Made by a program: the position numbers and the translations under genes. The notes beneath the pieces were generated by a model. That model did not search any database. It saw only the letters and a program-made list of their open reading frames with translations, and had not been told where the DNA came from. Shown piece by piece: positions 3,148 through 55,019 of a stretch of DNA of 64,000 bases. The stretch spans positions 16,100 to 80,099 of IMG/VR virus record IMGVR_UViG_3300015263_001568; one strand, given 5' to 3'. Source of the stretch: a virus. Within the stretch, counting starts at the first letter, position 1. The number at the start of each line of letters is the position of its first letter.

Positions 3148-4008
3148 CTACTCGCGAAGCGGTACGGAATGTCGACTACACAGCTTCTTAAATTCGGACT
3201 GCGATACGCCTACCGCGTTGGCCATGGCAGCAACCGCCGAAAAGCGCTCGGCGCACATCGTCAGCAAGCGTTTGATGGAAAGGTGGAATTCTTCTTCAAG
3301 GCGAATGTCGATAGGAGGCTTTTTATCGCGACATTGCTTACTACAGTAAGATATCGTGTCCTTTTTCAGGTAGGGCTTTTCAAACGAGCGCTCACAGACG
3401 GCGCAGACATTGGCGCTGGGAATGCGTGTAACGAGGTCTGTGTCTACTTCCTTGAGAATTTCCTCTTGCAGCGCACCTTTTCGCAGATTTGCCAACGTAC
3501 GCGTCAGCATCGAGCGCACCGCTGTAGGTGACATACCCAGCAAAATGGACAAGTCGTGATTTGTTAGTATTGGCCCCTGGCGACCTTCGTAGCGCATATT
3601 GCGCGCCAGGTAGTGCAAGATGCAGTTGCGCGCCCAAGGATGGTCTGTGTGGAACGCACAGCTCCGCACGGCACAGGGCTGATGTATTGCAATGTTATCC
3701 AGCTCTGGGCAGTAGAACGGCGGCTCGTGGTCAATGGTGCGCGGCTCGTCGTAGAGCTGCTCCATGTTTCCCGAGAAAATGTGCTCGACGTATTCGATGA
3801 CACTGTCGGCCGTCATAGGACCGACAGTGTCCTCCAGAATTTTCAAATTAGCGGGGTATTGATGACAAGGCCAAGATGCCTTGCCCGCGCAGAGGTTGAG
3901 TCGGCTTTTCGTGATGCCGATGTCGAGCAGGAGCTGCCCCGCACGATGGCACACCTTGTACATTGGGCAGGACGGATTAAGGTCCTTTTTGGCAATCCGG
4001 CCTGTCAT
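3148..4008 (-). CDS. Cys-rich putative transcription regulator with sigma-region-4-like HTH
   Basis: LTNHDLSILLGMSPTAVRSMLTRTLANLRK resembles a sigma70 region-4 HTH; CAVC...YCSKQC zinc-finger-like motif; possible second HTH at the C-terminus. Confidence 0.6.
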   Translation of the reverse strand: MTGRIAKKDLNPSCPMYKVCHRAGQLLLDIGITKSRLNLCAGKASWPCHQYPANLKILEDTVGPMTADSVIEYVEHIFSGNMEQLYDEPRTIDHEPPFYCPELDNIAIHQPCAVRSCAFHTDHPWARNCILHYLARNMRYEGRQGPILTNHDLSILLGMSPTAVRSMLTRTLANLRKGALQEEILKEVDTDLVTRIPSANVCAVCERSFEKPYLKKDTISYCSKQCRDKKPPIDIRLEEEFHLSIKRLLTMCAERFSAVAAMANAVGVSQSEFKKLCSRHSVPLRE

Positions 4009-15219: not shown

Positions 15220-15630
15220 CGGCTAGTATTTGCTGCGCATAGCGACCTGGAAACGTTACAGGATTTATCTTTCGCAACATGGTCAAAATCGCTTTGGATG
15301 GCTTTACCCAACCTAACGCCAGTGCTGACAGCGCAATTGTTTGCAGGTTCTCGTCATTCAGGCATTCACGAAGAATGATCTGCTGCTGCCGCATGTCGGA
15401 AACAAGCACGCCAAGATACACTTCCAAGGCTTGTCCACGCAGCAGAAAGTCCAGATTAGTATCTCGGATGAGGGCACGTATTTGGCGTCCGGTTCCTTTG
15501 TCATCCGAAATGATGGCGTCTTCTAGCTGCGCCAGTGCGCTTTATACTCTCGTGGTCGATCCTCCAAGAGCAAGTAGCGAACTTGTTCCAATACTGATTC
15601 CGGTGGTGATGTTGCATTAACTGGTAGCAT
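15170..15630 (-). pseudogene. Hypothetical gene apparently split by a one-base frameshift near 15541
   Basis: Coupled ATG at 15630 (TAATG) gives MLPVNATS...REYK then an early TAG; a protein-like frame (SALAQLEDAIISDDKG...) begins at that point, shifted -1. Confidence 0.5.
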
Positions 15631-16598
15631 TAAGACCTATGCAAAATAGCTCCTACTGGAAGCTTGGTGCTCTTCCAGCCTCGGTGCTTTTGTAGTTCCT
15701 CAACGTAGACTACCGCGGCCCCCTGTAGGCCACCGAGCTGCTGGAGCACCGCAGCAGCACGATCACGCGATGGTCGTGCCCAGAATACCGTATTCGAGCC
15801 GTCGTAGAAACTCGTGACTTTTTCAATGGGCGAATGGTCGATTTGCATCGTGAGCAGCCGCCCATGTACATCGCCCAAGCGACTATCGATCAAGTCAAGC
15901 TGCTGGTAGAAAGCTGCTGCTTGACGCCGATCAAACGCCTCTTCTGGATGCCGAGGTTGCAGCAAGCCTGTACGTCGCCGGAGACCGGCTACAAGCTGTC
16001 GCCGTGCTTCCAGGTAGAAGGCCCATATGGTTGCCGACAAAGGCTTCCTATGGGCCTCTACAGGCGTCCAGGTAGCAAGCCAGACATCCTGCGCAGCGAC
16101 CGGCATCAGCCGACTCAGGGCAAACAAGCGCTGCCGTTCAACGCCCGTGCGCAGTGCATGAAAGAGGCCGAAGGCTAAACTATTGATATCATTGAAAACT
16201 TCAATGGACGAAGGCGGAAACCCAAGCCAAGGCGGACTGCCGTTACCGAGAAGGTCTACGCGCGTGCGAAATGCCTTCCAAAATGGCTCGACCACTTCTT
16301 CGACCGCACCTTTCGTGGTGAGCCACTTTGACACACTTTCTGCCCAACGAGTAGCCTTTGCCGCAGCGAGCACGAGGACGTTTCGCTGGGCATCCTGTAA
16401 ACGCTGTAGGAAGCTCTTGAGGTCACTCAAGGGTTTCGCTACCTGCCAGGTACCACTGGGGCCTTCCTTGGCGCCTCGTGGCGTCCAGGAGGCATCCCAA
16501 GACTGTGCTGCATGGATAGTGCAGTGTGGCCCGCCGTTGCGCTTGCCGTGGATGACGCACACAGTGTCCGCAAGGCTATTCGTCATCGTCATCGGCAT
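15630..16598 (-). CDS. Hypothetical protein
   Basis: 322 aa ORF directly downstream of recA. Confidence 0.65.
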   Translation of the reverse strand: MPMTMTNSLADTVCVIHGKRNGGPHCTIHAAQSWDASWTPRGAKEGPSGTWQVAKPLSDLKSFLQRLQDAQRNVLVLAAAKATRWAESVSKWLTTKGAVEEVVEPFWKAFRTRVDLLGNGSPPWLGFPPSSIEVFNDINSLAFGLFHALRTGVERQRLFALSRLMPVAAQDVWLATWTPVEAHRKPLSATIWAFYLEARRQLVAGLRRRTGLLQPRHPEEAFDRRQAAAFYQQLDLIDSRLGDVHGRLLTMQIDHSPIEKVTSFYDGSNTVFWARPSRDRAAAVLQQLGGLQGAAVVYVEELQKHRGWKSTKLPVGAILHRS

Positions 16599-30439: not shown

Positions 30440-30943
30440 TTGAGCCCGCGTATCGCCATCTCGACTACTGGCTACCCCGTCAAGACGGGTGTGGCAACGG
30501 AGATACAGGTTGGTAGCCTCCGTCACCTTCTACAAGCCGCGGAGAGCCTCGCTGAGCAGCCCTACCGGCTTGTGGCTATCTACCCCTTTGGCCAACCTCG
30601 AAAAGCCGTATACGACGTCCTAGACAGCCTGGAGAAGTCCCTTTGCTCTGCCAAGGTGCTGGTGGTCTGCCGGCACGGCGCGCAGGCCATAGTGCCCGAC
30701 TTCCTTCAGCCGCACCAACGGCTCCGGCGGCCAAACGGGCACATCGATGTCATGGTCCACGTTGACCGTGACTTGGCGTGGGAGCCGCCCACGAATCTTT
30801 CGCTCGACATCCATCCGACGACAGGGCGATTCAGCCGCTGGGCTATTCAACAAGGCTTGGTGCCGATCGTTCTGCGCCGGATAACGTCTGTTCAAAAGTG
30901 CAAGGACCTCTACAACCTTCTAACCGCTGAGGCAGCTCTATGA
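30440..30943 (+). CDS. Hypothetical protein
   Basis: AAGGAG 9 nt before the TTG at 30440; ATGA overlap with nrdJ. Confidence 0.6.
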   Translation: MSPRIAISTTGYPVKTGVATEIQVGSLRHLLQAAESLAEQPYRLVAIYPFGQPRKAVYDVLDSLEKSLCSAKVLVVCRHGAQAIVPDFLQPHQRLRRPNGHIDVMVHVDRDLAWEPPTNLSLDIHPTTGRFSRWAIQQGLVPIVLRRITSVQKCKDLYNLLTAEAAL

Positions 30944-33900
30944 TCCAAGCGACCTATCAACAGCGAATCATGCTCGACCGCTACGCGCAGAAGGACCCGC
31001 ACGCAAAGCCAAAGGAAGGCGACTTGGTCATCGTCAAGATGACGCGCTCTTTTTCTTTGGATGGCGAGGAGATCACATCGCGTGAGCTTGGGCAAATTAC
31101 CGAGGTCACCAATGGCGGCGGACCGGCACGCTACACTGTCGAGCTGGAAAATGAGATCGTAGCCGATCTCGATCGTAGCCGTGTAGAAGTCATCGTTGAA
31201 AAGACACCCGAGGACATCTGGCAGCGCTTGGCCAACGGCATCTGCAAAGCTGAATTTCTATATCTCAGCAATCCTCCGGACAGCCTTGCCTGGCAGCACA
31301 TTCAGTACCAGCTTGATCAAGCCGTGCTCCCGGACCAATGGAAGCCCATCCGGGAATTCCGCGACAAAGTCTATTCGGCGTTGTCACGCAATGAGTTCAT
31401 TCCAGCCGGTAGAATCCAAGTTGGCCTCGGTCGAGAAGACCTCACGCTGACCCTGTTCAACTGCTACGTGCTGCCGCGACCTGAAGATTCTAGGCACGGC
31501 ATCACACGCCGCTGGGGTGAGATGTTCGAGATTTTCGCGCGTGGCGGCGGTATTGGATTTGACGTTAGCAGCATGCGCCCCGCCGGTGCGCCAGTTGCCA
31601 AAGTCAGTGGGCGATCCAGCGGCGCCATCAGTTGGATGGAGCAATGGAGCCAAGTCACCGGAGAAGTGGAGCAGGGCGGCTGCTTTTCTGGCAATACACG
31701 CATTGCCACCACCAAAGGTTTAATCCGCGCAGAGGATCTAGCGAACCGTATTGACGCCGGCGCGCCGCACTGTGTGTATACGCATTCTCGTCCTCCAAGA
31801 CACGTCACGCACGTTTTCCGAAATGGCCAGAAACGATTCTTTCGCGTGACCACCAAACGTGGCTATGAAATCGAAGTCACGGGTGACCACAAGATGGGTG
31901 TGCTCAAAGAAGGGCGCATTGAAACGGTGCCGCTAAAGCACCTTTCTGTTGGCGACAATGTGCTTCTATTGCTTCCAAAATGCCAATTCCCCGAGAAGTC
32001 CGCTGTGGAGTTGTCGGCAATCGACTACGAAAAGCCAAAGATGAGCACCACGCTCAACGAAGACGTGCGCTTTCCAATCACACTAAATGGGAAGCTCGCG
32101 TATGTACTCGGCTACATGTACGGCAACGGTAGCGTCATCATGGGCAAGAAAGTCACATGGTCGTCGCCCAAAGGCATTTCGATGTCCGTGCCAACCAGTC
32201 GAGAAGACATTGCATGCAAACTGCAAGATTATATCCTCGACTGTTTTGGAGTGGTCGCCGAAATGGAGCCAGGCGACGGAGCCTGCGTGAATGTGAAACT
32301 GTACTCGCGCATCGTGGTGGAGTGGCTGAATACGAATGGCCTACTGAAGAAAAAAGCTGCGGATATCCGTGTACCCGAGCAGATATTTCATGCACCGGAA
32401 ACGGTAGTCAGCTCATTCGTTTCCGGCTACTTCGACGCAGATGGATCCGACCGCGGCATCAAAGGAGGCTACGGATTCGACTCTATCAGCAAAGGTATGC
32501 TGCAAGACGTGCAGAAGATTCTAGCCAGCTTTGGCATCGCTGCCAAGCTACGTCCAGAAGACCGGTCTTCTACAGGGTGGAGCACCCTCTACAGACTATC
32601 TGTAACGGGACCCGTATTTAAGGAACGCTTCATGGACTTCGCACGCTGGTCGATGAAGGCACAGCGACATACATCCAGGCGTGACACGAACATGTACCCG
32701 ATGGAAGCCTTCAAATCGTGCCAGGTGGATCCCAAGCTCTATAAAGGCTTGGTAGCAATTTCCTATGACGTGGTCTCGTATGCTGCGGTTAGCCGCGTTT
32801 TGGATCGCGCCGGTGATGAAGGACTGGGTGGGTCTGAACAGGCTGCCAAGATGGACGCACTGCTAAACGTTCTACCGGATGCCATTGATAGCATCGAAGA
32901 CGTCGGCATGATGGACGCTTTTGACTTTGAAGTCGATGAAGTCCACATGCTCAGCGGCGATGGATTCTACACCTCGAATTCCCGAAGAGGCGCTACGCTC
33001 TTTGGTATCGCGCCTTGGCATCCTGATGTCGAGCGCTTCATCGAGGTCAAGTCGGAGCGCAGCGCTTTCCGCATGTCGGGTGACGAGCTGCTTCAAAGCC
33101 TCAACCCCGAGATCATGGAGCAGTTCGGCGCACAGCTTCGTAAAATCTTCGTTGGGAAGGAAGATGCTGCCTCGATCAGCCGCAGCAAAGACCTCATCAA
33201 GAACGCCAATATCAGCGTGCTGTTCACCGAGGCGTTCATGGATGCCGTCGAGCGCGATGACTACTGGGACTTCGTTTTCCCTGACACCTCAGATCCGGAG
33301 TACGACGCCATCTGGCATGGTGACATCGAGGCTTGGCGCGCGTTGGGCAAGCCCGTCATCCACTACGGCACCAAGAAGGCACGTGATCTTTGGTACCGCC
33401 TCATCGACCGTGCGTGGGCGTCGGGAGAGCCAGGTGTCCTTTTTGTCGATAGAATGAACGAAATGAGCAATAGCTGGTACTATGCGCCCATAGAGTGCAC
33501 AAACCCGTGCGTTACCGGTGATTCGCTCATCTACACCAGCCGCGGTCTGATCACGGTGGACGATCTGATGGCGGAGCGCACGCAGCCCCAATATCTTGTC
33601 GACAGCCGCTTCGGCTACGAGCCTACATTTTCTGAAGGCACCAAATTCTGGTGCTCGGGTGAGAAGCCCATCTATCGTCTAGAGACTAAAGAAGGCTACA
33701 CCATCCGCGCCACAGCCGACCACAAGATCATGACGTCGCGCGGGTGGGTGCAACTTGCGAAGTTAAAGGAAGGCGACAAAGTGCACATCGCCAATCGCGG
33801 TGGCGCTTTCGGAAAAGAAGGCACGCTAGAGTTCGGCCGCGTCTTGGGCTGGTTCATTGGCGATGGATATTTCACTGGTGAAAAAGCCATATTGGATTTC

Positions 33901-36900
33901 TACGGAGATAAGCATCAGCTAGCCGACACATTCGTAGGCTACGTGCAAGACTTGGTCGGGCACGACAAGGACTATAATCCACAGTACAACATCACAGGGT
34001 ACACGGTTGAGGCGCGCGATCTGGTAACCATTCAATCCGAACGCCTCTACCAAATGCTGCACGAGTTTGGAATCACGGAAGACACCAAGCTGCGCGTGCC
34101 GAAGATCGTGCAGCGTGGCACCGCTGACATGCAGCGCGGGTTCCTTCAGGCGCTGTTTGATGCGGATGGCTCAGTTCAGGGGTCAAACAAGAATCCTACG
34201 ACAGTCATTCGGCTGACCTCTATCTCGGATGACTTGTTAATCGGTGTACAGCAGCTTTTGTTGAACTTCGGCATCGCTTGCCGCATCTACTGGGAACGCC
34301 GACCTGCCGGCTACCGTAAACTGCCGGATGGCAAGGGGGGCTTGAAGCGCTACTGGTGCCAGGCGTATCACGAGCTAGAAATCTCAAAAGCAAATCTGCA
34401 AGTGTTTGCGGACGAAATCGGGTTCCTCCGTGATGTCCACCAAGGTAAGCTACGAACGCGCCTTGCCGCCTACATCCGACCACCACAGGCCGAAAAGTTC
34501 ACTGCACGCGTGTTCAGAATCGAAAGCGATGGTGTAGAGAAGGTCTACGACGTCACCGTTCACAACACCCACAGCTTCGTAAGTAGTGGAATTTGCTTAG
34601 CAAATTGCGGTGAGCAGAGTTTACCAGCCAACTCGGTTTGTAACTTGGGTCACATCAATTTAGCACAGTTTGTTCGTGCCTCCAGTGAAAATTTCCCAAC
34701 CAGCTCCCGCACCAGCGAAGACGCGCAGCGAGCCTTCAATCTGCCGCACTTTAGGGACGTCGTAGCAACGTGCGTTCGTTTCCTCGACAACGTGATTGAT
34801 GTCGAGAATTTCTTTATCCCTGCCGTCGAAGAACGCCAACGTGCTGAACGCCGTGTTGGCCTTGGCATTCTTGGCTACGGAGAGCTGCTAGTACGTCTTG
34901 GGCTTCGCTATGGATCTGACGAGGCGGTCGACTTCACGCACTGGCTTTTCCAGCAGCTCGCTGAAGCCAGCTATAGAGCGTCTGTTGACTTGGCAAAGGA
35001 CCGTGGTGAATTTCCGCTATTTGATGCTGAGAAGTTCCTCCAGTCTGGCTTCATGAAGGGCATGCCGTCAGAAGTACGCGACGCAATACGCGAGCACGGT
35101 ATTCGCAACGTCACATTGAATACGATCGCGCCAACGGGTTCCGTGGGCACCGCGGTTGGCACCACTACAGGCATCGAACCCTATATTGCCTTGAATTGGC
35201 TAGCCCGTAGTCGCGTTGGTGAAGCAGCGGAAAAAGCCAACGTGATGGAAAAGCTGGAAGAGAAATTCGGTGAGCGTAGCAATTGGCCCGACTACTTCGT
35301 AACCATCGCCAACATCACGCCATCGGAGCACGTCAGAACGCAAGCAGCAGCGCAGCGTTGGATTGATTCCTCCATCTCCAAGTGCGTTACCGGAGATACC
35401 CTGATAGCGACAACGGACGGACTTATCCGTATTGCATCGCTGCACCAAGGGGAAGCGGCCGACAGTTTCAGAGATGCAGAGCTAGAAGTGGCTTCGGTAG
35501 GACCGAATCAGAAAACGTCTGCCTTCTATTACGGCGGACCTAGGACGGTGAAGAAGGTAGTCCTTCATTCTGGTCATACCGTGAAAGGCACGGAAAATCA
35601 TCGACTGCTTGTCGGCACAGTAGACGGTCTGCGTTGGGTAAGGATGGATCAAATACAAGAAGGCGATCTAGTAGCCGCCCGTTATGGCGCGGATATTTGG
35701 TCATCGCAGCCGTCAAAATTTGCTGACTTCTCCCCAAGCCAAAAATATGGAAATCAGAAGTCCGTTAAGCACCCGATTGAGATGACTGAGGACTTGGCCT
35801 GGCTTCTGGGTGCCTACGCGGCCGAGGGCCATACTACACAATCCACTTGGACAATCACCATCACAAACTCAGTAGAGGCGGTGCTACAAAAGGCCGTAGC
35901 TGTCTGGGAATCAGAATTTGGCGTTGCTGCACGCATAACTCGACAGAGCGGGAAATGCCCTGGTGTAGAAGTCGCCTCAAAAGAAATCGTAGAATTCTTT
36001 GACTACCTTGGGTGTGGCCATAGATCGAACGAAAAGCGGATTCCGGAGGTGGTACTACGCTCTCCAAAACCGATGGTTCTAGCATTTCTACAAGGTCTGT
36101 TTTTGGATGCCTACACTACTGATGGCACGCTAACAAAATGGGCCATCTGCCTAAATTCCAATGGCATGTTGGATGACCTACAAGCGATCCTTACCAACTT
36201 GGGTGTTATTCACAGCCGAATCTCCAAGTACAACCCTGACTACGACAAGCATTATGACGAAGTGTACGCCTGTGGATTAGACGCGCAGAAGCTCATGTCC
36301 ATGGTGCCGTTCATGGAACCGGACAAGAAGGCACGCGCGGACGCCATTCTAGCAAAAGACCTTAGTAGCTGTATCAACAAAGCAGACATCGTGCCTGTTG
36401 ACCGCCGTGCTTTGCATGAACTGATTCCACATGGGAAACGGAAAGCCTTCGGCGCTGCGCTACGAAATGTGAATACTACGTTCCCAAGCCGGCATACGAT
36501 TGAACGGTTTGCCGCAGCGTACCCAAACGCGCTACCAGATTACGTGAGAACCATCTTGGACAGCGACCTGCATTTCAGCCCCGTGATGTCGATTGCGGAC
36601 GACGGTGTGCAGGAAGTTTTTGACCTATCCGTTCCTGACAACCATGCTTTTGTAGGAAATGGGATCGTAAACCACAACACGGTCAACCTACCGCAGAGCG
36701 CTACCATAGAGGACGTGAGCGAAGCCTACCTGGAAATGTACCGCCAAGGTTGCAAAGGCGGAACGGTATATCGTGACCGCTCACGCGATCGGCAGGTGCT
36801 CTACACTCTCGATGAACAGCCGGCAATCGTCGAAGAGCTTACCACTGCGGAATTTGAAGAAGCAGCGCCTGAAGGGTGCCTGCGCCCGCGGCTGTCTGTC

Positions 36901-37545
36901 GGCATCGCGCCATTGTTCACGCAAGACACGCCGGTCGGGCATATCCATGTTGCCATTCGGCATCATCCTGACAATCATCAACCGTACGACATTTTCGTCG
37001 TGAGTGGCAAAGGCAACGTCGGCGCTGATGTGCAGGCATTGGCACGATTGATGTCGATGATCATGCGGTGGCCCAACAACGCACGCATCAATCAGACCAC
37101 GCGACTGGAAATGATTCATCATCAGCTGCAAGGGATTGTCGGCCACGGCCAAGTGGGCTTTGGCCCCAATGCTGTCGTCAGCTTGCCCGATGGTATCGCT
37201 CGGTCCATCCGGCGATACCTCGAAGGTGAGTACCCGCAAACTGTACCGGCCGATACACTTGACCCCGCCCTGAAGACTGTTTTGGCTAAGCTGATACAGC
37301 ATCAAGGCAAAGACACCACGCTAGAAGCCATCCTGAGCCTTCTGGAGGCGTCGGCGAGCAACAACAATGGGATGGCCCCAATAGAGCTGACGTCCGCTGA
37401 CGGCGCCTCTGAGGCGCTGCATTGGGACGTGCCGAACGACTTCAGCTTCCCCTACGACATGTGCCCTAGCTGTGGGCGGACGACGCTGCTACGGATACCT
37501 GGTAAGTGCGCAGATTGTAAGGAATGTGGATATTCTGCGTGCTAA
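30940..37545 (+). CDS. nrdJ: Class II (B12-dependent) ribonucleotide reductase with three inteins (~970 aa after splicing)
   Basis: TLFNCYV, QGG|SRRGA, TNP|CGEQ, TIAPTG, SISK|TVN; C-terminal TSCPD-like domain (SLPDGIA) and zinc ribbon; no nrdB seen in the window. Confidence 0.93.
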   Translation: MIQATYQQRIMLDRYAQKDPHAKPKEGDLVIVKMTRSFSLDGEEITSRELGQITEVTNGGGPARYTVELENEIVADLDRSRVEVIVEKTPEDIWQRLANGICKAEFLYLSNPPDSLAWQHIQYQLDQAVLPDQWKPIREFRDKVYSALSRNEFIPAGRIQVGLGREDLTLTLFNCYVLPRPEDSRHGITRRWGEMFEIFARGGGIGFDVSSMRPAGAPVAKVSGRSSGAISWMEQWSQVTGEVEQGGCFSGNTRIATTKGLIRAEDLANRIDAGAPHCVYTHSRPPRHVTHVFRNGQKRFFRVTTKRGYEIEVTGDHKMGVLKEGRIETVPLKHLSVGDNVLLLLPKCQFPEKSAVELSAIDYEKPKMSTTLNEDVRFPITLNGKLAYVLGYMYGNGSVIMGKKVTWSSPKGISMSVPTSREDIACKLQDYILDCFGVVAEMEPGDGACVNVKLYSRIVVEWLNTNGLLKKKAADIRVPEQIFHAPETVVSSFVSGYFDADGSDRGIKGGYGFDSISKGMLQDVQKILASFGIAAKLRPEDRSSTGWSTLYRLSVTGPVFKERFMDFARWSMKAQRHTSRRDTNMYPMEAFKSCQVDPKLYKGLVAISYDVVSYAAVSRVLDRAGDEGLGGSEQAAKMDALLNVLPDAIDSIEDVGMMDAFDFEVDEVHMLSGDGFYTSNSRRGATLFGIAPWHPDVERFIEVKSERSAFRMSGDELLQSLNPEIMEQFGAQLRKIFVGKEDAASISRSKDLIKNANISVLFTEAFMDAVERDDYWDFVFPDTSDPEYDAIWHGDIEAWRALGKPVIHYGTKKARDLWYRLIDRAWASGEPGVLFVDRMNEMSNSWYYAPIECTNPCVTGDSLIYTSRGLITVDDLMAERTQPQYLVDSRFGYEPTFSEGTKFWCSGEKPIYRLETKEGYTIRATADHKIMTSRGWVQLAKLKEGDKVHIANRGGAFGKEGTLEFGRVLGWFIGDGYFTGEKAILDFYGDKHQLADTFVGYVQDLVGHDKDYNPQYNITGYTVEARDLVTIQSERLYQMLHEFGITEDTKLRVPKIVQRGTADMQRGFLQALFDADGSVQGSNKNPTTVIRLTSISDDLLIGVQQLLLNFGIACRIYWERRPAGYRKLPDGKGGLKRYWCQAYHELEISKANLQVFADEIGFLRDVHQGKLRTRLAAYIRPPQAEKFTARVFRIESDGVEKVYDVTVHNTHSFVSSGICLANCGEQSLPANSVCNLGHINLAQFVRASSENFPTSSRTSEDAQRAFNLPHFRDVVATCVRFLDNVIDVENFFIPAVEERQRAERRVGLGILGYGELLVRLGLRYGSDEAVDFTHWLFQQLAEASYRASVDLAKDRGEFPLFDAEKFLQSGFMKGMPSEVRDAIREHGIRNVTLNTIAPTGSVGTAVGTTTGIEPYIALNWLARSRVGEAAEKANVMEKLEEKFGERSNWPDYFVTIANITPSEHVRTQAAAQRWIDSSISKCVTGDTLIATTDGLIRIASLHQGEAADSFRDAELEVASVGPNQKTSAFYYGGPRTVKKVVLHSGHTVKGTENHRLLVGTVDGLRWVRMDQIQEGDLVAARYGADIWSSQPSKFADFSPSQKYGNQKSVKHPIEMTEDLAWLLGAYAAEGHTTQSTWTITITNSVEAVLQKAVAVWESEFGVAARITRQSGKCPGVEVASKEIVEFFDYLGCGHRSNEKRIPEVVLRSPKPMVLAFLQGLFLDAYTTDGTLTKWAICLNSNGMLDDLQAILTNLGVIHSRISKYNPDYDKHYDEVYACGLDAQKLMSMVPFMEPDKKARADAILAKDLSSCINKADIVPVDRRALHELIPHGKRKAFGAALRNVNTTFPSRHTIERFAAAYPNALPDYVRTILDSDLHFSPVMSIADDGVQEVFDLSVPDNHAFVGNGIVNHNTVNLPQSATIEDVSEAYLEMYRQGCKGGTVYRDRSRDRQVLYTLDEQPAIVEELTTAEFEEAAPEGCLRPRLSVGIAPLFTQDTPVGHIHVAIRHHPDNHQPYDIFVVSGKGNVGADVQALARLMSMIMRWPNNARINQTTRLEMIHHQLQGIVGHGQVGFGPNAVVSLPDGIARSIRRYLEGEYPQTVPADTLDPALKTVLAKLIQHQGKDTTLEAILSLLEASASNNNGMAPIELTSADGASEALHWDVPNDFSFPYDMCPSCGRTTLLRIPGKCADCKECGYSAC
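31681..32979 (+). mobile_element. Intein 1 (433 aa, LAGLIDADG-type) at QGG|SRRGA
   Basis: Starts CFSGNTRI, ends FYTSN before Ser; LGYMYGNG and GYFDADG motifs. Confidence 0.92.
33508..34605 (+). mobile_element. Intein 2 (366 aa, LAGLIDADG-type) at TNP|CGE
   Basis: Starts CVTGDSLI, ends ICLAN before the catalytic Cys; LGWFIGDG and ALFDADG motifs. Confidence 0.93.
35383..36678 (+). mobile_element. Intein 3 (432 aa, LAGLIDADG-type) at SISK|TVN
   Basis: Starts CVTGDTLI, ends IVNHN before Thr; LGAYAAEG motif. Confidence 0.93.
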
Positions 37546-52557: not shown

Positions 52558-52693
52558 GCGCGTTCTAGAGCAGGCTGTTGACCTTCTCTAGCTCGGCATG
52601 GATTCGTCGTAGCGCCATGATAGAACTCTTCCAGACAGTCCAGAAGCAGACGCAGGCTACGTCAATTCGTTTGAGCAGTCCTGCGATACCAAC

Positions 52694-52723
52694 AAAAGCC
52701 CGCTAAACCATAGCGGGCTTTTT
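52694..52723. terminator. Bidirectional intrinsic terminator
   Basis: aaaagcccgcta-aacca-tagcgggcttttt. Confidence 0.85.
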
Positions 52724-52792
52724 CTCTATCTGCCTCTTCTCCGTTTCAACTTGTCGGCGAAAACCAAAAACCTAGTCTACTCTATTTTAATC

Positions 52793-53002
52793 CTACCACA
52801 ACATCACCAAAAGCCGGGCTTGCCCGACGACAACATCACCACCGGGTAGAGCCCGGCTGCGGCGGAACAAAAATCTCCGCCACTACCCACAACATCATCA
52901 AAGGCCAATCGGCCAACCACATCACCCAAACAACCGAAGTATGCCGCAGTTTCGATTGCGGCGAAATAAATACGCTGCCGATGGCAGCAATAGGAGAACA
53001 AC
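52793..53002 (+). promoter_or_regulatory. Structured 5' leader or ncRNA of the capsid operon with repeated CAACATCA motifs
   Basis: Five predicted hairpins plus four C[AC]ACATCA[CT]C copies; AGGAG RBS at 52992. Confidence 0.6.
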
Positions 53003-53779
53003 ATGGCTCTTAATCCTGGAGTCACTGCCCCCGGCGCAGCGGTATTCGCCAAGTACGACATGGCGCGTAGCCGCTTCGAGCACCGATGGGCATACGACAT
53101 CGAGGCCGGGGTCAACATCCTCGAAGAGGGTTCGCTGCTGGTACGCAAGGCCGGCGCGGGCACGACCGAGGTTGTGGCCCCATCTGCTGACGCTGCTGGT
53201 GAAGTGCCCCTGGGCATCGCACTACACGGCGCCATCAATGCGGTCACCTTCACCAAGGTGATCAATGCAACCGTTCCGGCGGTTGCTCCGCTGACCATCA
53301 ACACGGGTCTGACCAACATCACGACCTACGGTGCGGCTCCGCAGGTGCTGGCATACGACAACACCAGCGCCGCGTATCGTGTGACGGTGGTTGGTGCACC
53401 TGGTGCCAACCAGGTCGGCGTGACGCTCGCCAGCGGTCTGCTGACGGCAGATGCCGGTCTGGCCGGCCACAGCATGACCTTCACCATCCAGTGGACCCTG
53501 ACGGCCCTGGAGTCGCAGCTTCTGCTGCGCGAGTCTCACATCAACCGCGGTGCTGAGGCCCTTTTCGGCCAGATCATCGTGGGCTGGGGACAGTGCGAGG
53601 TGTTCACCACGATGTACGACGCCGGTGCGACGTATGCCGTGGGCGATGTTCTCGACCTCGGTGCGGGTGGCATCTTCACCAGCACTGCCCGTGCTGTGAA
53701 CAACGTTGCATTTGGCCGCGTGACCAGCGTTCCCACAACCGACGACCCCTACCTGGGCGTCTACTTCATCACGCCGTAA
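53003..53779 (+). CDS. Putative capsid decoration / cement protein
   Basis: Directly upstream of the MCP; Ala/Gly/Thr/Val-rich; strongly biased codons; ends GRVTSVPTTDDPYLGV. Confidence 0.65.
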   Translation: MALNPGVTAPGAAVFAKYDMARSRFEHRWAYDIEAGVNILEEGSLLVRKAGAGTTEVVAPSADAAGEVPLGIALHGAINAVTFTKVINATVPAVAPLTINTGLTNITTYGAAPQVLAYDNTSAAYRVTVVGAPGANQVGVTLASGLLTADAGLAGHSMTFTIQWTLTALESQLLLRESHINRGAEALFGQIIVGWGQCEVFTTMYDAGATYAVGDVLDLGAGGIFTSTARAVNNVAFGRVTSVPTTDDPYLGVYFITP

Positions 53780-53792
53780 GGAGAAGCTGAGC

Positions 53793-55019
53793 ATGTCCGT
53801 ATTCGCTAAGAAGAAGACGGCCACCGCTGCTCCCCGGCTGGTGGACCGACAGGGTAATGATGTGGCGGATGGATTTTCCTTCCGCCGTAATCCCCGCAGC
53901 GGCTCGATCATGCGCGCCGGTACGGCTGGCAGCCTCGCCCCGCAGGGCGGCTCCCGCCTCGTTGGCGCCAATGGCGAGTACAATGCGTACAGCAAGCAGC
54001 AGCTCGTCGAAATCATCGATGGTCTGCTGTCGCAGGCAGCGAGCGGCGACGTTCGCCTCGACACGGGCGTTAGCCAGATCATGCAGCAGCGCATGGCGGC
54101 TCCCCGTGGCGTGACGATGGCGCCGAGTAACACCTGGAACCAGGAAGGTCACCTGGTTCACGCCGCGCTCGCGGATCGTTTCCCCGAGCACGGTGGTCCG
54201 TTCCACGTCCTGGGTGAAGTCTTCACGGACCAGATTTCGGAGACGATGGGCCGGCTGGGCTTCACCAACAAGATTTTCGCGCAGCAGGACATTCCTGAGC
54301 AGGGCACGGCGCGCGTTCGTGTTCGCCAGAAGGATGTCGTGGCGTGGGTGATGATGGCCGACGGTCACACCGCCGAGTCCAAGGTTCGCCAGCGCTACGT
54401 CTACCCGAAGGCGTTCGACATCAATGCCCTCATCATGATCTACGAGGCCGACATCCACGAAGCCGGCAGCGCGATCATCGAGGACAAGTACAACGACGCG
54501 CTCGAACAGACGATGGTCCGTGAGGACAACATCTCCAAGTTCCTGCTCGACCAGGCGGCGCCCTCGACCAACGACGTGATCGCGTTCAACGCCTTCACTC
54601 CGTCGGTCTTCGCCGAGCTGCGCGACCAGGTGTGGCGTTGGAGCCTCCCGGTTCCGCACGCCCTGATGAGCCGCGATCTGTGGACTGACCTCTTTGCCGA
54701 TGCTGACTGGCAGCGTTGGTACTCGCCGATCGAGAAGCACGAGTACGCCGTCGAAGGCAAGCTCGGCAAGCTCGCCGACGTCGAGATCATCACCGACGGG
54801 TTCATCTACGACACCTTGCGGGTGCTTCAGCCCGGCGAGGTGTACTTCCTTTCCGCTCCGGCCACACTGGGCATGAAGTCCAACTTCACGGCTCTCCAGA
54901 GCGAGATGATCAACCAGCACATGCTGGGTCGCAATGCGCGCGGCTGGTTCCTCGCGCAGCGTGAGGCACTCACCCTGATCAACTCCCGCGGTGTGTCCAA
55001 GGGCCAGAAGGTGGTCTAA
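53793..55019 (+). CDS. Major capsid protein (HK97-type fold, large-phage family)
   Basis: 408 aa; AAGGAG RBS; very strong codon bias; followed by a terminator; helix-E-loop-spine-helix pattern (ISETMGRLGFTNKIF...YVYPKAFDINA...LEQTMVREDN). Confidence 0.8.
   Translation: MSVFAKKKTATAAPRLVDRQGNDVADGFSFRRNPRSGSIMRAGTAGSLAPQGGSRLVGANGEYNAYSKQQLVEIIDGLLSQAASGDVRLDTGVSQIMQQRMAAPRGVTMAPSNTWNQEGHLVHAALADRFPEHGGPFHVLGEVFTDQISETMGRLGFTNKIFAQQDIPEQGTARVRVRQKDVVAWVMMADGHTAESKVRQRYVYPKAFDINALIMIYEADIHEAGSAIIEDKYNDALEQTMVREDNISKFLLDQAAPSTNDVIAFNAFTPSVFAELRDQVWRWSLPVPHALMSRDLWTDLFADADWQRWYSPIEKHEYAVEGKLGKLADVEIITDGFIYDTLRVLQPGEVYFLSAPATLGMKSNFTALQSEMINQHMLGRNARGWFLAQREALTLINSRGVSKGQKVV

Follow-up and report, generated by a model that had tools for sequence, protein, structure and literature searches.

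Introduction

Regulatory RNAs such as CsrB and RsmZ carry repeated unpaired motifs on a hairpin scaffold and bind protein multivalently, and phage T4 encodes RegA, which binds short A/U-rich sites overlapping the ribosome-binding sites (RBSs) of many phage mRNAs. Very little work has so far addressed post-transcriptional control in jumbo phages. In this study, we analysed a putative leader RNA at positions 52793-53005 of a 64,000-nucleotide (nt) stretch of viral DNA (hereafter the window), which corresponds to bases 16100-80099 of the 80,099-bp IMG/VR virus record IMGVR_UViG_3300015263_001568 (CheckV completeness 23%). The leader precedes two head genes and contains four copies of a short, nearly G-free motif distributed over a series of hairpins. 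We tentatively propose that a sequence-specific binder, in all likelihood encoded by the phage as a protein, docks on this platform at the RNA level, and hold this reading with somewhat less than even confidence. The window comes from a jumbo phage of about 350 kb, because its major capsid protein (MCP) is related to those of jumbo phages (26-30% identity, e.g. to PaBG and Lu11, thus distantly) and because the related complete genome G001, which has terminal repeats, measures 349,793 bp.

Other described systems that come close are C/A-rich. The prophage-encoded small RNA (sRNA) AgvB antagonises the sRNA GcvB by mimicry of its CACAACA target (PMC4104026), and the C/A-rich sites that GcvB targets enhance translation as well (PMC4474525). 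The omega leader of tobacco mosaic virus (TMV) holds CAACAUUAC and ACAAUUAC repeats (PMC9502800), and Escherichia coli ribosomes translate it via S1 without a Shine-Dalgarno (SD) sequence (PMC13577412).

The leader shares with the CsrA/RsmA system the repetition of one short motif in the loops and linkers of a hairpin scaffold, and the combination, in G001, of core-motif pairs bracketing the SDs of several genes with one RNA that carries a larger array recalls Csr targets and their sponge. However, its motif is CAACAUCA(C/U)C, that is (G/A)CAACAU(U/C)AYY, rather than (A)GGA, only 6% of its unpaired bases are G, its array is continuous with the SD and AUG, with no terminator in between by inspection of the sequence or by a simple scan, instead of forming a terminated stand-alone sRNA, and it has no Rfam match to CsrB, RsmY or RsmZ; no csrA-like gene was linked to it, although no search aimed at one was made. 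The likeness to CsrB/RsmZ drawn in a preliminary description of this DNA therefore holds as an analogy of architecture, but neither for the motif nor for the kind of element, which is an mRNA leader. The SD-bracketing AUUAC pairs of G001 resemble RegA operators, although the analysis identified no homologue of RegA, this protein is not known to bind a multi-site array in a capsid leader, and the window record lacks RBS-bracketing sites. With GcvB R1 targets and AgvB the leader has in common G-free, single-stranded, C/A-rich elements containing CACAACA (PMC4104026; PMC4474525), but it differs from them in that, instead of a small RNA with a single site, an uncultured jumbo phage has 4-7 copies in the leader of a structural-gene mRNA, the AUUA variant of its relatives pairs by wobble only and the central motif position is degenerate. 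Like TMV omega, it is a G-poor, CA-rich viral leader in front of a main open reading frame (ORF) with ACAAUUAC/CAACAUUAC units (PMC9502800; PMC13577412); unlike this unstructured leader of a plant RNA virus, it alternates stable hairpins with the single-stranded tracts and has a canonical SD and a highly specific, conserved motif. By sequence comparison, the leader appears to belong to no described RNA family, and the systems nearest to it by analogy would be motif arrays of the Csr type and C/A-rich elements that enhance translation or are targeted by sRNAs.

The locus deserves attention as a single, easily mutated cis element, in which a motif of about 11 nt in 4-7 copies is conserved clade-wide before the most highly expressed genes. 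It raises the questions of who reads the motif (a phage KH protein, the ribosome via S1, or a host sRNA such as GcvB), whether late mRNAs serve as sponges, and whether the SD sites of G001 form a translational regulon. The known cis-regulatory RNAs of phages would also gain an undescribed family, to which the covarying multi-helix version of the relatives belongs.

Results and discussion

The leader presents a non-random motif array on a hairpin scaffold

The leader is located in the longest non-coding gap of the record (52558-53002), and its features are collected in Table 1. All five hairpins, the four motif copies (the second in the loop of the first hairpin) and the partial copy ACAACAT overlapping the start codon, as listed in the preliminary description, were recovered at the same positions by reading of the sequence and by RNA folding. 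The motif measures about 11 nt in the window, (C)ACAACAUCACC, and the window variant holds ACAUCAC. The minimum free energy of the leader was -84.2 kcal/mol, compared with -61.3 +/- 4.3 in dinucleotide shuffles (z = -5.3), and none of 200 shuffles was as stable. Four copies of one 10-mer with at most one mismatch occurred in none of 1000 leader shuffles, where the maximum was three copies, reached in 22 of them. Across the window 17 motif matches were found against 4.3 expected; the only clustered copies are the four of the leader, all on the plus strand, and this cluster is unique in the 80-kb record. The leader array is therefore a real and non-random piece of anatomy. In Rfam 15 the window leader had no match at E values up to 10, and for seven relatives there were likewise only chance-level matches, none of them on a leader, so the search against known families that the preliminary description had in view matched none. 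No conserved ORF was found in the leader; the ORFs that overlap it are shadows of the downstream gene.

The motif copies lie in predicted unpaired regions, as had been proposed: the mean unpaired probability of motif nucleotides is 0.97 against 0.59 over the whole leader, although this test is biased in that a motif free of G will pair poorly simply through its composition. The approximately 125 unpaired bases of the leader consist of 50% A, 30% C and 6% G, and the paired bases of 41% G and 39% C.

Such a composition also suits another explanation, in which the G-free C/A-rich linkers would be generic translational enhancers or S1 standby sites that boost abundant virion proteins with no dedicated regulator. 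A and C make up 80% of the unpaired bases, the single-stranded tracts are set off by stable hairpins in the manner of standby-site architecture, the leader serves capsid genes, the precedents of C/A-rich GcvB targets and of TMV omega are at hand, and in G001 the core AUUAC adjoins SDs and start codons. However, the sequence specificity of S1 is low, and a conserved 11-nt consensus, a concerted U/C change and the display of copies in loops (see below) are unneeded for standby. The copies also lie 84-270 nt from the AUG, where a strong SD is already present, and we regard the enhancer explanation as unlikely.

The same bases could instead be processing or termination signals, either a Rho rut-site attenuator or RNase E cleavage at the A-N-A-U-U core. 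About 125 unpaired nt with 30% C and 6% G do resemble a rut site in composition, and the preference of RNase E, RN↓WUU with the arrow marking the cut, is matched by A-N-A-U-U. Neither Rho nor RNase E needs the conserved GCAAC...AYY flanks, however, the AUCA variant of the window lacks the U at +2, and an attenuator placed before the most needed late genes would require an unseen anti-terminator. We consider this explanation highly improbable.

Two other ideas were rejected. For pairing with 16S rRNA (GGUAAU of the 530 loop, GAUGUUG of helix 35 and a resemblance to AUCACC of the 3' tail), the complementarity is short or of the wrong sense and involves buried regions. The repeat also matches neither the A-R-N motif of Hfq nor the AAnAAnAA motif of Crc/Hfq.

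The motif array is conserved on the sense strand of related phages

Relatives were found in IMG/VR and the JGI metagenomes with a profile of the 258-aa protein encoded by the first gene of the operon, and the comparison set comprised 16 leaders, namely that of the window and those of 15 distinct relatives whose 258-aa proteins are 41-50% identical to that of the window. The window MCP is 58-61% identical to those of relatives L002, L007 and L012 and 46% identical to that of L061. Where the locus was long enough, as checked in five relatives, the pair formed by the 258-aa gene and the following capsid gene is kept, and the genes upstream of the pair differ. The leaders of the relatives are 200-330 nt long and each has motif copies on the sense strand. 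The number of copies per leader ranges from 2 to 7, with at least four in 13 of the 16 leaders, and a position-wise tally of 76 copies yields a-G-C-A-A-C-A-U-(U/C)-A-Y-Y as the consensus, in which the sixth, central position is fully degenerate (C45/A14/U9/G8). In five more distant relatives, whose local matches reach 24-44% identity, both a long leader and motif copies are lacking. The conservation across related phages that had been looked for was thus found in the motif array of 16 divergent phages, restricted to the sense strand, and these comparisons indicate that the leader is a selected, strand-specific and evolutionarily conserved element of a jumbo-phage clade.

Searches along other routes returned nothing comparable. 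A blastn search of the locus against GenBank phages gave no match, nor did scans of IMG/VR with the 258-aa protein or the MCP as single queries, and among the 118 unspecific IMG/VR loci with two ACATCAC copies none had a capsid homologue. The closest protein relatives of the 258-aa protein are P0002 (71%), P0003 (58%) and P0004 (57%).

An upstream element (CTACTTAnnCTATA / TAGTTACTnTAT), which aligns among the leaders, precedes the first motif copy in all relatives and resembles a promoter, and would mark the start of the leader transcript. TAGTTAC-type copies of this element recur before further G001 genes, though as looser and unproven matches. A sigma-70 promoter scan gave no match at the element, and a strict regular expression of it revealed no genome-wide promoter class.

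Direct repeats near a conserved promoter-like element could in principle be operator or activator sites in double-stranded DNA, close to a late promoter of the head operon, with the hairpins being incidental. Yet all copies lie downstream of the element, their spacing is irregular, and the sense copies outnumber the antisense ones by 78 to 5 over the 16 leaders. Moreover, copies are found in the loops of covarying helices and in otherwise unpaired RNA, and the G001 core stands between SD and start codon, so that DNA binding is very unlikely as an explanation of the repeats.

In a maximum-likelihood protein tree, the AUUA (U) variant of the motif fills one 12-member clade, and the AUCA (C) variant is found in the window and the basal clade L061/L062/L065. 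Because the U/C variant follows phylogeny, all copies within one leader changed together, and this concerted change points towards a partner that evolves with the motif and away from host machinery that stays invariant. The degenerate central position, in turn, fits recognition by a protein better than a continuous RNA duplex.

A continuous duplex is what would form if the repeats were target or decoy sites of a host Hfq-dependent sRNA with a G/U-rich seed GUGAUGUUG, of the GcvB R1 type. Such an sRNA could repress the capsid operon, one site overlapping the AUG, or the abundant late leader could soak it up and so relieve the repression of amino-acid and peptide uptake, as AgvB does. Copy 1, as CACAACAUCAC, is a perfect 11-nt complement of nt 66-76 of E. 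coli GcvB, and copies 2 and 3 are complementary over 10 nt each. The leader has six GcvB sites of at least 7 nt, including ACAACAU at the start codon, whereas shuffles had a mean of 1.2 and none of 300 reached six; the longest run has P = 0.007. Two exact copies of CACAACA in the leader correspond to the published R1 target consensus (PMC4104026), and the variable motif positions 4, 6 and 7 are C or U, both of which pair with G. Once wobble is allowed, 12 of the 15 relatives have GCAACAUUAC copies that can form 10-nt pairings with R1, a comparison of little power since shuffles have means of 3-5 sites. However, when only Watson-Crick pairs are counted, complementarity to GcvB is weak or absent in most relatives. 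The degenerate central position would break the duplex, and a single sRNA cannot pair across the unconserved spacers of the paired AUUAC sites of G001. A search of the window's own record and of G001 for a gene of a complementary G/U-rich or antisense RNA gave only matches in coding regions or the leaders' own antisense strands. The fit was tested post hoc with one sRNA, and the explanation presupposes a host that has Hfq and gcvB or an equivalent seed. Taken together, we think a host sRNA unlikely to be the reader of the array.

Eight relatives share a covarying multi-helix RNA

Eight relatives (L004, L006, L007, L011, L012, L015, L057 and L068) have leaders that align over their whole length, and RNAalifold on these eight leaders gave a closed multi-helix domain. 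Standard pairing was found in 92.6% of cells, compared with 35-48% when the 3' partners were slid by 1-3 columns, and compensatory pairs numbered 10 against 1-3 in the slid controls. Two helices carry motif copies in their terminal loops, and the other copies lie in the single-stranded 5' part. Since a multi-helix fold is conserved and covarying with the motifs in its loops, selection would act on the RNA, although the covariation evidence is moderate and not strong because it comes from eight sequences. In 15 of the 16 leaders, the motif bases exceed the leader as a whole in mean unpaired probability (0.69 vs 0.48), subject to the compositional bias mentioned above. The structure of the window leader is simpler, with five independent hairpins; all that it has in common with the relatives is the motifs, the upstream promoter-like element and where the last hairpin lies. 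The fold proposed in the preliminary description is thus supported for the window by its stability against shuffles, and the covariation bears on the structure of the relatives only.

The conserved covarying RNA (L007:2705-2991 and the aligned leaders) measures about 230 nt and has no Rfam match. A possible alternative pairing, GCAGCG ... ACGCTGC ... CAGCGG, was also noted in it, in which the middle segment can pair with either neighbour.

The motif core brackets ribosome-binding sites in G001

In the complete genome G001, the exact 8-mer CAACATTA has 6 occurrences, and no further arrays of the long motif were found there or in the window's own record. The shorter core ATTAC (AUUAC in RNA) occurs 37-39 times in sense and 13 times in antisense in the unidirectional intergenic DNA of G001, where about 12 are expected, which is a 3-fold excess. 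Core pairs 12-15 nt apart number 29 against about 14 expected, and at 8 or more genes such a pair brackets the SD and ends 0-2 nt before the start codon, as in ATTAC-GAGGAG-CAAC-ATTAC-T-ATG. Genes with AUUAC at the RBS include those of a DNA ligase, a phosphoesterase, a radical-SAM-like protein and unknowns, and no functional class emerged among them. By analogy, such pairs look like the geometry expected of a dimeric translational repressor such as CsrA. The general architecture can be written as AT(T/C)AC - SD - AT(T/C)AC - 0-2 nt - start codon (G001 loci L120-L137).

Two short leaders of G001 carry (N)ATTACC, with 4 copies at 172569-172664 and 3 copies at 276302-276374, and one of these copies occupies the loop of a GCCGAC/GTCGGC hairpin. 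Downstream of these leaders lie a 567-aa gene and a homologue of ORF 3148-4008 of the window. Among the upstream words of G001, CTTGTAAAAT(A) shows the highest enrichment, being present in 15-22 regions against about 2 expected and probably representing a promoter class, and TTGACA-N17-GATATT promoters of the sigma-70-like kind occur near the genome ends.

A phage RNA-binding protein as the possible reader

The leader is probably an RNA-level binding platform of some kind; given such a platform, a phage protein as its ligand is a possibility to which we assign rather less than an even chance, and the ribosome via S1 and a G/U-rich host sRNA survive beside it as candidates, each about half as probable. 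A phage RNA-binding protein is favoured because the motif centre is degenerate, the change between lineages is concerted, the copies are displayed in loops, and the SD-bracketing pairs have unconserved spacers. In this mechanism, positions 52793-53005 would be the 5' leader of the head-operon mRNA, transcribed from the conserved upstream element. The GC-rich hairpins would fix its shape and leave four nearly G-free linkers or loops with one motif copy each, and the array would offer multivalent docking to a single-strand RNA binder that sets the translation, and possibly the stability, of the capsid message. Most likely, the ligand would be an RNA-binding protein encoded by the phage, probably a dimer, whose evolution is tied to that of the motif. 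The preliminary description had likewise spoken of a scaffolded, multivalent array of unpaired motifs, an idea that gains from the conservation, the strand restriction and the structural context.

The only concrete candidate ligand is a KhpA-type KH-domain protein of 99 aa. The preliminary description had mentioned a KH protein of this phage, and the domain proved to be a bona fide KhpA-type one (PF13083). KhpA homodimerises, and one KH domain reads about 4 nt (bioRxiv 10.1101/435529). The protein has a syntenic homologue in G001, the sole complete array-bearing relative, and the family is absent from the five array-less, more distant relatives, two of which are complete genomes, a distribution that gives weak phyletic support to KH as a candidate.

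Several observations, besides the compositional bias of the unpaired-probability test, speak against a phage protein docking on this RNA. By sequence, the motif of the window shows a striking fit to the seed of a known sRNA, which would favour a host sRNA. The covariation covers eight relatives and not the five hairpins of the window (the closest leader compared belongs to a phage with 47-50% protein identity), and beyond the motifs and the last hairpin, homology between the structured RNA of the relatives and that of the window is not evident. The RBS-bracketing pattern is absent from the 41 RBSs scored in the window's own record, although this record covers about one quarter of the genome and leaves hardly any room between genes. 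The co-occurrence of KH and array amounts to two positive genomes of one clade and is confounded by phylogeny. Finally, no RNA run is listed among the sequencing runs that carry the stretch, the sole one being the probable source sample, a marine sediment metagenome.

We speculate further that the clade runs a Csr-like circuit, in which a dimeric phage binder (with KH as a candidate) would repress early and middle genes via AUUAC/AUCAC pairs around their SDs, and the array of 4-7 sites in the capsid leader would either titrate this repressor or use it as an activator. We rate this circuit as improbable; if it were true, the phage would link the making of capsid protein to the silencing or release of its other genes.

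The head operon and its surroundings

Upstream of the leader, a terminator-like hairpin with a U-rich tail closes the preceding gene block. The terminator that the preliminary description had placed there thus has a counterpart in the 12-bp hairpin, although a simple terminator scan did not list it. The first gene of the operon encodes the 258-aa virion protein. Its AlphaFold model is mainly beta (predicted local distance difference test score 70.6), and Foldseek returned weak matches alone, to small capsid decoration or cement proteins of HFTV1, T1, FCWL1 and phiCD508 (E about 0.03), which suggests that it is possibly a capsid decoration or cement protein.

Table 1 Positions of the leader features, head genes, candidate ligand and SD-bracketing sites
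Feature	Genome	Position	Strand	Basis or remark
Terminator-like hairpin and U-run, closing the upstream gene block	Window	52698..52724 (approx.)	+	12-bp stem, -18.7 kcal/mol, then UUUUUCUCU
Promoter-like element TAGTCTACTCTATTTTAAT, conserved; putative leader transcript start	Window	52773..52792	+	Aligned element in all relatives
Motif copy 1, CAACATCACC (flanked: CACAACATCACC)	Window	52799..52808	+	Unpaired probability 0.98
Hairpin 1, 15-bp GC-rich stem, one bulge, 16-nt loop	Window	52812..52858	+	RNA folds
Motif copy 2, CAACATCACC, inside hairpin 1 loop	Window	52831..52840	+	Unpaired probability 0.99
Hairpin 2, core 52861-52881, A-rich loop ACAAAAAUC	Window	52859..52883	+	RNA folds
Motif copy 3, CAACATCATC, G-free linker	Window	52890..52899	+	Unpaired probability 0.99
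Hairpin 3, GGCC-AAUC-GGCC	Window	52903..52914	+	RNA folds
Motif copy 4, CCACATCACC, G-free linker	Window	52917..52926	+	Unpaired probability 0.90
Hairpin 4, 8 bp, UUCG loop	Window	52943..52962	+	RNA folds
Hairpin 5, 6 bp; position matches last pre-SD hairpin of relatives	Window	52974..52988	+	RNA folds and alignment
RBS: SD AGGAG 52992-52996, partial motif ACAACAT 52998-53004, ATG 53003-53005	Window	52992..53005	+	Sequence
258-aa virion protein gene, first gene of operon, possibly capsid decoration/cement protein	Window	53003..53779	+	phrog_16710
Major capsid protein gene, second gene of operon	Window	53793..55019	+	phrog_2522, E 2e-46
KhpA-type KH-domain protein (99 aa), candidate ligand only	Window	22165..22464	-	PF13083, 55.5 bits vs cut-off 32.1
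Fifth, isolated copy: 15-mer CAACATCACCACCGG = leader copy 2 and flank	Window	15600..15614	-	15 nt past stop of ORF 15630-16598
SD-bracketing sites	G001	24323-24342, 317819-317840	-	Core-pair pattern
SD-bracketing sites	G001	227212-227233, 230705-230724	+	Core-pair pattern
SD-bracketing site	G001	170278-170297	+	Core-pair pattern
SD-bracketing site	G001	148366-148345	-	Core-pair pattern
SD-bracketing site	G001	184777	+	Core-pair pattern
SD-bracketing site	G001	52728	-	Core-pair pattern
SD-bracketing site	G003	60457	-	Single instance in G003

The isolated fifth motif copy lies on the sense strand of its flanking genes. With it begins a stretch of 410 nt (15220-15629) that contains no long ORF and precedes an HNH/histone-like gene.

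The replication module is syntenic between the window (about 2234-48429) and G001 (about 133180-174484). The capsid operon with its leader directly follows this module in the window phage (53003) and is about 110-150 kb away from it in G001 (283788), and because its position relative to the module differs between the two phages, the leader appears to travel with the two head genes. The window also contains a 2201-aa ORF (30940-37545, plus strand) that, according to Pfam, encodes a ribonucleotide reductase large subunit split by an intein and LAGLIDADG domains.

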